DNA of 64,000 bases, from NCBI RefSeq assembly GCF_041886205.1, contig NZ_CP169029.1, one strand, 5' to 3'. Source of the stretch: Escherichia coli (GTDB lineage Bacteria > Pseudomonadota > Gammaproteobacteria > Enterobacterales > Enterobacteriaceae). This document shows positions 28,966 to 33,795 of the stretch, piece after piece; within the stretch, counting starts at the first letter, position 1; every line of letters begins with the position of its first letter. The notes under the pieces are model-generated. The model saw nothing but the letters and a program-made list of their open reading frames with translations, was not told the DNA's origin and did no database searches. Made by a program: the position numbers and the translations under genes.

Positions 28966-29126
28966 CACCATATTAGTTACAACATCCTATGTGCCTTTAT
29001 CATTAACAGGTGCCACATGCAGCGCCTGTTAATGTTGTAAGCTTATAGGTAATTTGTAAGTAGCGTCTTGAGAATGTGATCGTAATCACGTTTAATAGGG
29101 CGACTTTTCCACGCCTGAAGATAACC

Positions 29127-30041
29127 ATGATTGTTCGTCCACAACAACACTGGCTGCGCCGTATTTTTGTCTGGCACGGCTCAGTATTATCCAAGATATC
29201 CTCGCGCTTACTACTCAATTTTCTCTTTTCTATCGCTGTTATTTTCATGCTGCCCTGGTACACGCATCTGGGCATCAAATTCACCCTCGCACCGTTCAGC
29301 ATTCTCGGTGTTGCCATCGCCATTTTTCTTGGTTTTCGTAATAATGCCGGTTACGCCCGTTACGTTGAAGCGCGAAAACTTTGGGGGCAGTTGATGATTG
29401 CCTCACGGTCGTTACTACGTGAGGTAAAAACGACATTGCCGGATTCGGCAAGTGTAAGGGAGTTTGCCAGGCTGCAAATCGCCTTCGCTCACTGTTTACG
29501 CATGACATTACGCAAACAGCCACAGGCGGAAGTGCTGGCACATTATCTCAAGACTGAAGATCTTCAGCGTGTACTGGCTTCGAACTCTCCAGCTAACCGT
29601 ATCTTGTTAATAATGGGGGAGTGGTTGGCGGTTCAGCGCCGCAATGGGCAGCTTTCAGATATCCTGTTTATTAGCCTCAACGATCGGCTTAACGATATTT
29701 CAGCGGTTCTGGCAGGCTGTGAGCGCATTGCCTACACGCCAATTCCCTTTGCCTACACCCTGATTTTGCATCGTACCGTTTATCTGTTTTGTATCATGCT
29801 GCCGTTCGCGCTAGTCGTGGACCTGCATTACATGACGCCTTTTATCTCTGTGCTGATTTCCTATACTTTTATTTCGCTGGATTGTCTGGCGGAAGAACTG
29901 GAAGATCCGTTCGGTACTGAAAACAATGATTTACCGCTGGATGCCATCTGCAACGCTATTGAAATTGACCTGTTACAGATGAACGATGAAGCCGAAATTC
30001 CAGCAAAAATTCTTCCCGATCGTCATTACCAGCTGACGTGA
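29127..30041 (+). CDS. yneE: Bestrophin-family membrane protein (304 aa)
   Basis: Multi-TM ORF; start at internal ATG 29127 (MIVRPQQHW) rather than the ORF-track 29076. Confidence 0.85.
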   Translation: MIVRPQQHWLRRIFVWHGSVLSKISSRLLLNFLFSIAVIFMLPWYTHLGIKFTLAPFSILGVAIAIFLGFRNNAGYARYVEARKLWGQLMIASRSLLREVKTTLPDSASVREFARLQIAFAHCLRMTLRKQPQAEVLAHYLKTEDLQRVLASNSPANRILLIMGEWLAVQRRNGQLSDILFISLNDRLNDISAVLAGCERIAYTPIPFAYTLILHRTVYLFCIMLPFALVVDLHYMTPFISVLISYTFISLDCLAEELEDPFGTENNDLPLDAICNAIEIDLLQMNDEAEIPAKILPDRHYQLT

Positions 30042-30044
30042 TAA

Positions 30045-30803
30045 TTACTCCGTACGGCGGGCAACAATAAAAAGACGCGGAAATGCCAGCAGTATCTGTC
30101 CGTTCTCTTGCAGTGGATACTGCTCTTCCAGCATCTGATGGTAGCGCGTAAGAAAAAGCTGCTGTTCGCTCTCGGTCAGATCCTGTAACCACGGACGTAA
30201 TCCAGTGGCGGTCACCCAATCGATAATCGCCTGGTGCGACGGCATCTGGTGATAGTAGGTGGTTCGCCAGATATCGACCTCACATCCGGCTTCGCTCAAA
30301 ATATCGTAGTAAGCATGAACGCCAGCCAACGGCTCACGCCCGCGATCCGGGTAGTTTTGTTCCCAGGCAACTTCGCGCATGAGCACATGGGTCGGCTCCA
30401 GCCAGTTATCTGGCATCTGTACTGCCAGCACGCCCTGCGGATTAAGTAAAGAAACCAAGTGAGGAAACAATTCGTAGTGGTCGGGCAGCCATTGCAGTGA
30501 GGCATTAGCAAAAATCAGATCGAGTGCCTGTTCCGGTTGCCAGTTGCGGATGTCTGCTTCCACGAACTGGCAGTCTGGCAAAGCACTGCGCGCTTCAGCA
30601 ATCATCGCCGGAGACGAGTCGATGCCTGTTATCCTGGCCGCAGGCCAACGTTGATGCAGCAGGGCGGTGCTGTTACCTGGGCCACAGCCAAGATCGGCAA
30701 CGTATTTGATATTCTCCAGCGGCACTCTGGCAAGCAGCTCCACCGCCGGACGCGATCGTTCAGCGGCAAAGTGCAGATATAAAGAGGGGTTCCAGTCAGA
30801 CAT
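30045..30803 (-). CDS. tam: trans-Aconitate 2-methyltransferase (252 aa)
   Basis: SAM-dependent methyltransferase motif [10 protein letters not shown]. Confidence 0.9.
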
Positions 30804-32606
30804 TTATTTACTCCCGTCAGCGCGTTACCCCAATTGTAGATAAAACTGTTGACATCCTCCACGCCCTGAATGACGAGGATCCTGCTACGTTCAGGCTGTC
30901 GCCTGAATCATTTCGGTGGGTTCCTGCTTCAACGGGCGGCCTGACTGCACCATCCCTCCACAGGCAAGAACGGCGTGCCCCGCCGCTAAAATGTTACGAG
31001 CGCCATTTACATCGGCGTTCGCTGTATATCCACATACCTGGCATCTGAATTTACTTTGTGACAGGCGGTTCTCTTTCGCTGTATGACCACAGTACGCGCA
31101 ACGCTGGCTTGTATACGCTGGCGGAACAGCAAGCACCTGACCGCCACGCCAGAGCTGCTTGTACTCAAGCTGGCGGCGCATTTCATACCAGCCCTGATCC
31201 AGTATCGAACGGTTTAAACCTGATTTTGCCCGGACATTGCGCCCCGGCTGGCTGACCGTACCCGCTGCTGACTTTGACATGTTGCTGACCTTCAAATCCT
31301 CAATGACTATCATTGCGTGGTTTTTGCTGACGGTCGTTGTGACTTTGTGAAGGTAGTCCCTGCGGATATTTGCGATACGGGAATGCAGTCGCTGTATTTT
31401 GCGTTTCTGCTTCTGCCAGTTGTTGCTGAATTTGACCTTGCGGCTTAACTGTCGCTGAAGTCTCGCCAGCTTCTTCTGGTTTTTCTGAAAACTGTTTACA
31501 GGCTCAAAGACTGTACCATCTGACAGCGTGGCGAGTTTAGCCACGCCAGCATCCAGCCCGATCATTGATGCTGAAGGGTGAACCGGAGTTGATACTTCAC
31601 TTTCTGTCTGAATACTGATGTGCCACTTACCGCAGGACTGGCTGACCGTGACATTTTTCACAACACCCGTGACCTGACGGCTATTCCGGTAGCGCATCCA
31701 GCCCAGTTTCGGCAGAAAAATACGGCTGTTTTCCTGATCGAGCTTAACGCCCTGCGGGTAGCGGAATGCATCATTCTGTCCCCGCTTTTTGAATCGGGGA
31801 AAAGCAGCCCGCTTCTGGAAGAAGTTTTTGTAAGCCCGCTCAAGGTCTTTCAGTGACTGTTGCAATGGCTGTGACGGGGCATCTTTAAGCCATTGCGTTT
31901 CAGTGGCATTTTTCCACTCAACCAGCCAGGAAGCCATTTTCCCGTAAGGGATGTATTTATTACCGGCCTCATGATTCTCATTCTGACGTGCCAGAGCACG
32001 ATTGAAAACGAAACGACATGCGCCTGCGAAGCGCCTCATTTCACGCTCCTGTTGACCACCGGGTCTTAACTGGAATTTAAATGCCTGTAGTCGTTTCACA
32101 GGTCAAATTATATTTTGGTCTGTGAAAAAAGAAACCGATATCCGGCGTGGAAGGCATTGTGTTTTCCTGAAGCATGTTCACATGGTCTTTGTCACCAAAT
32201 ACCGACGCCAGATTTTTGACCATGACGCGACAGAAAAACTACGCACTTACTTTTCAAATGTATGTGCTGATTTTGAAGCTGAACTGGTTGAAATGGATGG
32301 CGAACCAGATCACGTCCATTTGTTAATTAACTATCCTCCCAAACTGGCGATATCCAGTCTGATAAACAGCCTCAAAAGCGTATCGGGTAGGTTACTGCGA
32401 CGAGATCGACCAGATATTGCAGTCAGGTATTACTACAAAGGCGTTTTGTGGAGTCCTGGCTATTTTGCCAGTAGCTGCGGAGGTGCGCCAATATCCGTCA
32501 TCCGCCAATACATTGAACAACAGCAAACACCTGGTCAGGTGGAAAACCGCGCCTTATATCCCCGCCCTGAAGGACGGGGTTTTACGGCGCACCGGATAAA
32601 TTCGCC
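30804..32606. mobile_element. IS200/IS605-family insertion sequence with divergent tnpB and tnpA between tam and lsrG; ends approximate
   Basis: Y1 HuH transposase gene and TnpB gene back to back (starts 22 bp apart), occupying the whole 1.8-kb interval between tam and lsrG; imperfect hairpins at both ends. Confidence 0.8.
30891..32099 (-). CDS. tnpB: TnpB (IS605 OrfB), RuvC-like RNA-guided nuclease, 402 aa, apparently intact
   Basis: RuvC-I (IGLDAGV), RuvC-II ([13 protein letters not shown]), zinc finger (CAYCGH...[18 protein letters not shown]) all present, no internal stops. Confidence 0.9.
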
Positions 32607-32688
32607 TCACGGCATCAACCCATTGAACAGACGTTTTTTACGCGGCCCGGTCATTAAAGATTCCAGTTTCGCGACACAGGTTTTGTAG
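32122..32688 (+). CDS. tnpA: TnpA, IS200-type Y1 (HuH) transposase; C-terminal extent uncertain (ORF runs to 188 aa and overlaps the lsrG 3' end)
   Basis: HuH motif (HVHLLINY) and tyrosine-containing C-terminal region (YIEQQ); typical family members are about 140-155 aa. Confidence 0.8.
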
Positions 32689-32894
32689 TGGGGCGTGGTT
32701 TTATGGAACGCCACTGCGTCTTCATCTTTATAGGCTTCGTAGATATAAAAGCGCGAATTCACTTCCGGGTCCTGTAAGACATCGAAGCGCAAATTGCCTT
32801 CTTCCTGTACAGAGCCCAGGTGGTTCTGGCGAAAAACTTCGATAAACTCGTCAACCTTGTCTTCATGAACGTTAATTTCAACCAGTGTGACGTG
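32607..32894 (-). CDS. lsrG: (4S)-4-hydroxy-5-phosphonooxypentane-2,3-dione isomerase (96 aa)
   Basis: ABM-domain ORF starting [10 protein letters not shown]; last gene of the lsr operon. Confidence 0.9.
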
Positions 32895-32919
32895 CATGTT
32901 TCTTCTCCTTAATCCGCAG

Positions 32920-33795
32920 TTACTGTTTTTCACTCAGATAGAGTTCATATGCCCGATCAGCCGTTTCGTTATGGTGTACCACCGCCTGTACGGCTTTCAT
33001 CATCGCCACCGGATGGTCAGACTGGAAAATATTACGCCCCATATCCACACCAGAAGCGCCCTGATCGATAGCCTGCCAGCACATTTCCAGCGCCTCGCGC
33101 TCCGGTAATTTTTTACCGCCAGCAATAACAATGGGTACCGGACATCCGGCAACAATCCGTTCAAAACCTTTATCGACATAATAGGTTTTGATAATTTGCG
33201 CCCCCATTTCAGCGGCGATTCGAGTCGCGAGCGAGAAATAACGCTGATCGCGCACCATATCTTTGCCCACGCCTGTCACGGCCATGGTCGGCATTCCCAC
33301 TTTCATTCCGGCATCAACCAGCTGAATAATATTTTTGATCGACTGATGTTCATATTCGCTGCCGATATAAACCTGCGCCGCCACCGCGCAACTGTTCAGG
33401 CGCACGGCGTCATCCATCGATAACGCCACGGCTTCATTACTTAATTCCGCCAGAATAGAGTTCGCACCTGACGCCCGCAGTACCACCGGCCTATTGGTCG
33501 CAGGGGGAACTACGCTGCGCAAAATGCCGCGCGTACACATTAATACATCGGCATGTTCAAACAGCGGGGCGATATTTATATCAATGCGTTCAAGTCCGGT
33601 AGTCGGTCCCTGAAAATAACCATGGTCAAAAGCCAGCATCACGGTTTTACCCGTTTTCGGATTAAATATCCGCGATAAGCGTGACTGCATTCCCCAATCC
33701 AGCGCACCGCAACCTTTCAGGGTAAAAGGGATATTTTTTTGCGGTTGATCGGTACGAAAATCTTTACCATCTTTAATATCGTCTAAATCTGCCAT
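32920..33795 (-). CDS. lsrF: 3-hydroxy-5-phosphonooxypentane-2,4-dione thiolase, DeoC/aldolase family (291 aa)
   Basis: Class I aldolase-like sequence in conserved lsr position. Confidence 0.9.

Follow-up and report, generated by a model that had tools for sequence, protein, structure and literature searches.

IS608 of Helicobacter pylori inserts 3' of TTAC, its right end finishes with TCAA, and its tnpA and tnpB genes are co-directional. In ISDra2 of Deinococcus radiodurans, the tnpA and tnpB genes overlap and also run in the same direction. The TnpB protein of ISDra2 is bound to a ~150-nt RNA derived from the 3' end of tnpB and the right end of the element, the last ~16 nt of which come from the flanking DNA, and the complex cuts the donor joint, in which the target motif is followed directly by the flank (PMC8612924). 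In E. coli K-12, RNA-seq revealed transcripts overlapping the 3' ends of tnpB genes, and Gomes-Filho et al. linked HgcC and a hairpin with a UUCA loop to transcripts of this kind (PMC4615843). The K-12 chromosome also carries a copy of IS609, composed of insQ (tnpB) and a tnpA pseudogene, beside ydcO. Here we describe a complete IS609 inserted in the lsrG-tam spacer of E. coli, and we consider it probable that the 3' end of its tnpB gene and its right end encode an omegaRNA whose guide is taken from the tam leader.

The DNA analysed here is a stretch of 64,000 nucleotides, hereafter called the window. On its minus strand, lsrF, lsrG (32607-32933), tnpB (30891-32099) and tam (30045-30803) follow one another in this order. 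tam is intact and codes for a trans-aconitate 2-methyltransferase of 252 aa with Pfam methyltransferase domains. When used as a 3-kb query, the region 30000-33000 was 100% identical to strain wlxctx60, in which the RefSeq annotation supports the identities of tnpB and tam. The tnpB stop codon (TGA, 30891-30893) and the tam ATG (30801-30803) are exactly 87 bp apart (30804-30890, minus strand), as given in the original prediction; this spacing is a fact of the sequence and not a statistical claim. The interval is composite: 42 of its 87 bp (30849-30890) are the non-coding right end of IS609, and the other 45 bp (30804-30848) are the native tam 5' leader, which is the same as in insertion-free genomes.

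Identity to the K-12 insQ copy and boundary comparisons defined a complete IS609 of 1747 bp (IS200/IS605 family) at positions 30849-32595 on the minus strand, with the order left end, tnpA (antisense), tnpB and right end. The two copies share 98.2% nucleotide identity over the whole element, and RefSeq labels related copies 'IS200/IS605-like element IS609 family transposase'. In a strain with an empty site, the lsrG-tam spacer is 56 bp long and its junction reads ...TGAGGCGAATTTAT|CAGTTTTATCTACA... on the minus strand. In the window, the left junction reads ...GAATTTAT|CCGGTGCGCC... and the right junction ...GGAGGATGTCAA|CAGTTTTATC... on the same strand. The empty-site comparison alone left one boundary base ambiguous, and this base was settled using 30 related elements from other species. 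All of them keep GGAGGATGTCAA, which ends with GTCAA, and differ from the next base on; the flanks of their left ends are TTAT or TTAC. Because the relatives diverge right after GGAGGATGTCAA and have such left flanks, the element was placed at 30849-32595, 3' of TTAT. This tetranucleotide (32596-32599, minus strand) is found directly 5' of the left end (32560-32595, minus strand), which was delimited by flank comparison, and is both the target site and the predicted TAM.

Both ends of IS609 carry subterminal hairpins rather than terminal inverted repeats, as is typical of the IS200/IS605 family. The left-end hairpin (32560-32579, minus strand) is formed by CCCCGTCC-TTCA-GGGCGGGG and contains 8 pairs, and the right-end hairpin (30858-30879, minus strand) has a UUCA loop and 9 pairs, 2 of which are mispaired. 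Also in keeping with this family, insertion occurred 3' of a fixed tetranucleotide that was neither duplicated nor lost, and the element is nearly identical to a named IS609 copy, the K-12 insQ element. The K-12 copy shares with the window copy its terminal sequences (CCGGTGCGCC... and ...GGAGGATGTCAA), a TTAT preceding the left end and the divergent gene order, but differs from it by its insertion site (lsrG|tam in the window) and by 32 substitutions or indels, among which are a 1-nt deletion and two changes that disrupt pairs of the right-end hairpin. The TTAC target and TCAA end of IS608 resemble the TTAT/TTAC target and GTCAA end of the window IS609, whereas the hosts differ and the co-directional genes of IS608 contrast with the divergent pair found here.

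To examine the insertion, we excised the element in silico by joining the 60 nt on each side of its boundaries, and searched the product against 5426 complete E. coli genomes. Genomes such as that of O157:H7 PV15-279 match the excised junction with 100% identity; therefore, the insertion was clean and no host base was lost or duplicated. The insertion point is located 11 bp past the stop codon of lsrG, which is intact, and 45 bp before the tam ATG. An uninterrupted lsrG-tam site was found in 5188 of the 5426 genomes, and IS609 occupies exactly this site in 31 of them. Across the right junction, 29 of these 31 carriers share at least 99.3% identity and the remaining two share 95.4%. One of the latter two, strain RMDEC465, has a hairpin of the K-12 type and another allele of the tam leader (TACACT). 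IS609 copies at the same site differ from the window copy at 15 and 36 of 1747 positions, indicating that the insertion is old, was repeated or has recombined.

The IS609 of RMDEC465 (532-2278 in that sequence, corresponding to 30849-32595 in the window) is a second sequence type at the same TTAT site, with 36 differences, and could stem either from a separate insertion event or from recombination after an old one. We also considered the IS609 adjacent to yfeD, for which a BLAST match ran 12 nt past the right end and hinted at a shared flank and, with it, a guide-related link between the two sites. On inspection, GCTGATTCATCTATG versus CAGTTTTATCTACAA proved to be a chance gapped extension, and the shared flank was rejected.

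The tnpB gene (insQ; 30891-32099, minus strand) is intact and encodes a protein of 402 aa with the Pfam domains OrfB_IS605, Cas12f1-like_TNB and HTH_OrfB_IS605. Comparison with ISDra2 TnpB (8BF8/8EXA) gave an E-value of 6.5e-57, and residues D191, E278 and D361 of ISDra2 align to D, E and D in the window protein. Both CxxC pairs of the zinc ribbon are also present (CAYC and CQVC), hence the protein has the RuvC D-E-D triad together with the zinc-ribbon cysteines expected in a TnpB-omegaRNA (OMEGA) system, an RNA-guided nuclease. None of the five IS609 copies compared has a disrupted tnpB ORF, and amino-acid changes among them amount to ~27-54% of nucleotide changes, fewer than under neutral drift.

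The tnpA ORF (32122-32688, plus strand) is divergent from tnpB and was annotated by PGAP as a pseudogene (32107-32532). It encodes the Y1 (HUH) transposase of the IS200/IS605 family with a complete Y1_Tnp domain (2-121 of 121, E=1.2e-40), including the HVH motif and the tyrosine of YIEQQ, with the caveat that its stop codon is lost and that it bears the pseudogene flag. A stop codon after ...EQQQTPG is present in relatives from Serratia, Morganella and Yersinia, and all four E. coli/Escherichia copies with an ORF extending this far lack it. As a result of this loss, the ORF continues across the left-end hairpin and on into the flanking DNA. In the window, ~50 aa are added and the ORF overlaps the 3' end of lsrG by 82 nt in antisense. 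In the K-12 copy, tnpA has an internal stop before the ...EQQQTPG point, whereas the Y1 domain of the window tnpA is complete. Given the pseudogene flag and the lost stop, excision may have become rare or have ceased, and with it any role of the guide in the biology of the element.

The original prediction placed the right end and an omegaRNA scaffold at and just beyond the 3' end of tnpB, and both the element boundary and a conserved RNA fold bear this out. From 22 elements with ~50-95% TnpB identity, we aligned the 150 nt that precede the right-end boundary. RNAalifold returned 42 pairs in 8 helices, the right-end hairpin being helix 8, with compensatory changes in 17 of the 42 pairs. Standard pairs are formed in 95.0% of the cells, compared to 40-49% when the partners were slid, and none of 500 shuffles reached the observed values. 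Reading the alignment in antisense lowered the pairing from 95% to 77.5%, because 19% of the cells are G-U, thereby showing that the structure belongs to the tnpB-sense strand. The predicted omegaRNA scaffold is thus ~150 nt long (30849-30998, minus strand, its 5' end being approximate) and comprises the last ~105 nt of tnpB and the 42-nt non-coding right end, finishing exactly at the element boundary. A conserved structured RNA that overlaps the 3' end of tnpB and stops at the right-end boundary is a further feature of OMEGA systems, and this predicted RNA is the counterpart of the ~150-nt RNA of ISDra2, which likewise covers the tnpB 3' end and the right end up to the boundary. Folding of a single 170-nt sequence was no better than shuffles (z = -0.73) and was uninformative; support for the structure comes from covariation.

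A covariance model built from the 22-element alignment gave a single match in the 64-kb window, at 30849-30998 (minus strand) with 163.7 bits, compared to 171.7 bits for the K-12 copy. It also recovered relatives outside its building set, always ending at the right-end boundary, and a search of the whole window for a second right end or omegaRNA found none. Relatives from Photorhabdus and Klebsiella form a subgroup with a longer, different right-end hairpin (..CCCCCTCTTGAGTCACGAAGTGCGAAAGTGGGGG..), yet keep the terminal GGAGGATGTCAA, and the model still matches them at 92-110 bits. Of the 42 pairs, 40 are preserved in the window copy, and both failures (T-T and A-G) lie in the right-end hairpin. 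The same hairpin variant (30858-30882) is present in the widespread yfeD-adjacent IS609 of O157:H7 (2230-2278 in that sequence), which argues for a subtype and not for private decay. The 1-nt deletion (CAGG-ATCC) was seen in the window copy and in one other inspected lsrG|tam carrier of the type with at least 99.3% identity, and is absent from the RMDEC465, K-12 and yfeD copies.

Like the HgcC RNAs and sotRNAs found at tnpB 3' ends, the window RNA has a hairpin with a UUCA loop near its 3' end. The Rfam HgcC model (RF00062) gave a full-length but weak match at 30836-30958 (minus strand; 23.6 bits, E=0.017), below its gathering score of 50, so the window RNA is not a member of this family by the Rfam criterion. 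RAGATH-18 (RF03064) matched at 30921-30964 with 28.1 bits, below its gathering threshold of 44.9.

The boundary comparisons also agree with the original prediction that the DNA directly outside the element, the source of any guide, is the tam 5' leader. Based on the position of the boundary and on the ISDra2 precedent, the predicted guide is the 16-nt CAGUUUUAUCUACAAU (30848-30833, minus strand), or 20 nt with an end at 30829. This guide is part of the native tam leader and has the same sense as tam; the final six bases of its 16-nt form are the TACAAT hexamer. The TACACT allele seen in RMDEC465 would give one distal mismatch to it. The guide and its length, like expression of the RNA and cleavage by TnpB, are what would be expected by analogy with ISDra2, in which the target motif 5' of the left end acts as the TAM. 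The same role is expected in the window IS609, with TTAT/TTAC as the predicted TAM instead of the TTGAT of ISDra2; the divergent tnpA and tnpB genes are another difference from that element.

The following sequence of events is proposed. IS609 probably landed 3' of TTAT in the 56-bp lsrG-tam spacer by the usual single-strand mechanism of its family. Transcription past the boundary would append the guide CAGUUUUAUCUACAAU(UGGG), which stems from the tam leader and has the orientation of tam. The sequence 5' of the guide-matching DNA is TCAA in the occupied chromosome and TTAT in the empty site. According to the established TnpB model, the TnpB-omegaRNA complex would thus be expected to spare the occupied chromosome, where TCAA stands 5' of the target, and to cleave TTAT|CAGTTTTATCTACAAT, a sequence present only in strains with an empty site or once the element has been excised. 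Such a cut would favor re-acquisition of IS609 by recombination.

TACAAT (30833-30838, minus strand), preceded by TC and located 29 nt before the ATG, is a candidate sigmaS/sigma70 -10 hexamer, and GGGAG (30811-30815, minus strand) reads as the likely Shine-Dalgarno sequence of tam. The 160 nt in front of the tam ATG in the empty configuration contain no -10-like site other than TCTACAAT. The hexamer belongs to the leader kept after insertion, and the end of the element is located 10 bp upstream of it, in line with the original prediction. tam is strongly RpoS-dependent in EDL933 (PMC2907692), its start site was mapped in vitro with E-sigmaS, and sigmaS promoters were found to depend mainly on the -10 element (both PMC3141248). 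TACAAT may therefore be the sigmaS -10 of tam, as judged from its sequence and position. The -10 hexamer, the Shine-Dalgarno sequence and the ORF are unchanged by the insertion, and the DNA upstream of about -22 of the candidate sigmaS promoter is swapped for transposon DNA.

tam is listed in the lsrACDBFG-tam operon (PMC8085971), and IS609 puts 1.75 kb between tam and lsrG, which would uncouple tam from co-transcription with the lsr operon. Consensus scans of the gap found no sigma70-type promoter and no intrinsic terminator between the tnpB stop codon and tam. As no terminator was detected, tnpB/omegaRNA transcripts may read into tam. A tam start within the gap had also been set against an RNA spanning the tnpB 3' end, as if one would exclude the other; in fact, the two are compatible.

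Two sequences in the window place the locus on the chromosome. An exact GGATGTTGTAACTAA, which we take to be the core of a Tus-binding Ter site (TerC), is located at 28973-28987 (minus strand) between uxaB and yneE, ~1.9 kb from the right end of IS609. An exact 28-bp match at 49107-49134 (plus strand) is presumably E. coli dif, the XerCD recombination site. These positions suggest that the insertion lies between TerC and dif, in the terminus region. GC skew around the locus was too noisy to assign the active strand to the lagging-strand template.

Several other explanations of the locus were considered. It is rather unlikely that the window IS609 is a decaying fossil that no longer excises and whose guide has no role, leaving a fixed 1.75-kb spacer between lsrG and tam as its sole effect. 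Such decay would account for the PGAP flag and lost stop of tnpA, for the 1-nt deletion and for the two mispairs in a right-end hairpin that TnpA must recognise, and the 15 differences in 1747 positions between same-site copies in two strains point to an old, stably inherited insertion. However, tnpB and its catalytic triad are intact in all five copies, with amino-acid changes below neutral drift, the Y1_Tnp domain is complete, and IS609 is found at many different sites across E. coli genomes. Furthermore, the hairpin variant is shared with the yfeD copy, as befits a subtype rather than private decay, and the covariance score is only 8 bits under that of the K-12 copy.

Unlikely, too, is a rewiring of tam by which read-through from tnpB/omegaRNA, or a hybrid promoter (TGGAGG of the right end, a 17-nt spacer and the native TACAAT), would account for most transcription of the gene, independently of the lsr operon and of the native sigmaS promoter. 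No terminator-like site intervenes from the tnpB stop codon to tam, the two genes are co-directional and 87 bp apart, and the -35 position now reads TGGAGG (3 matches of 6, compared to 2 of 6 in the empty site). Yet the hybrid promoter matches the consensus at only 8 of 12 positions and was not called by the scan, and sigmaS promoters, according to PMC3141248, lean mainly on the -10, here unchanged. We regard as quite improbable the bolder proposal that the tam leader doubles as the omegaRNA guide in such a way that TnpB processing could set tam expression, every tnpB/omegaRNA transcript past 30849 being a potential 5' end of tam mRNA, and, separately, that the insertion spreads as a homing allele. 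Such spread could occur because an intact TTAT-flanked counterpart of the guide exists in ~5200 sequenced E. coli genomes, and the two sequence types at one site would fit either homing or repeated hits on a hotspot near TerC/dif. Finally, the version first proposed for this locus, in which the native tam upstream region was replaced or displaced by the transposon and the omegaRNA runs antisense to the DNA upstream of tam, is hardly credible. The transposon end does adjoin the tam upstream region, but no host base is missing, as the identity of the excised junction to insertion-free genomes shows, and the 45 bp of native leader in the 87-bp gap include the only -10-like hexamer. Nor was a separate promoter region displaced: the part moved 1.75 kb away is the 3' end of lsrG, since tam lay 56 bp past lsrG in the operon named after both. 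Moreover, the minus strand carries tam as well as tnpB and the conserved RNA structure, and the predicted omegaRNA would be sense to, co-directional with and continuous with the tam leader.

A literature search found no paper on this lsrG|tam insertion of IS609. The element, its family, the RNA and the mechanism are already known, and nothing at this locus challenges current understanding; the locus is one polymorphic insertion with a precise anatomy. It provides a corrected annotation, with the exact ends of IS609, its target (TTAT/TTAC), the predicted guide and an omegaRNA model of the IS609 clade that is backed by covariation. It also reveals a natural polymorphism, present in 31 of 5426 genomes, that would uncouple tam from the lsr operon and that brings transposon DNA to 10 bp upstream of the candidate sigmaS -10. 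Strains carrying the insertion and strains with the empty site form a ready-made pair for asking how far a sigmaS promoter needs its upstream region, and whether a native E. coli TnpB makes a guide RNA and polices its donor site.
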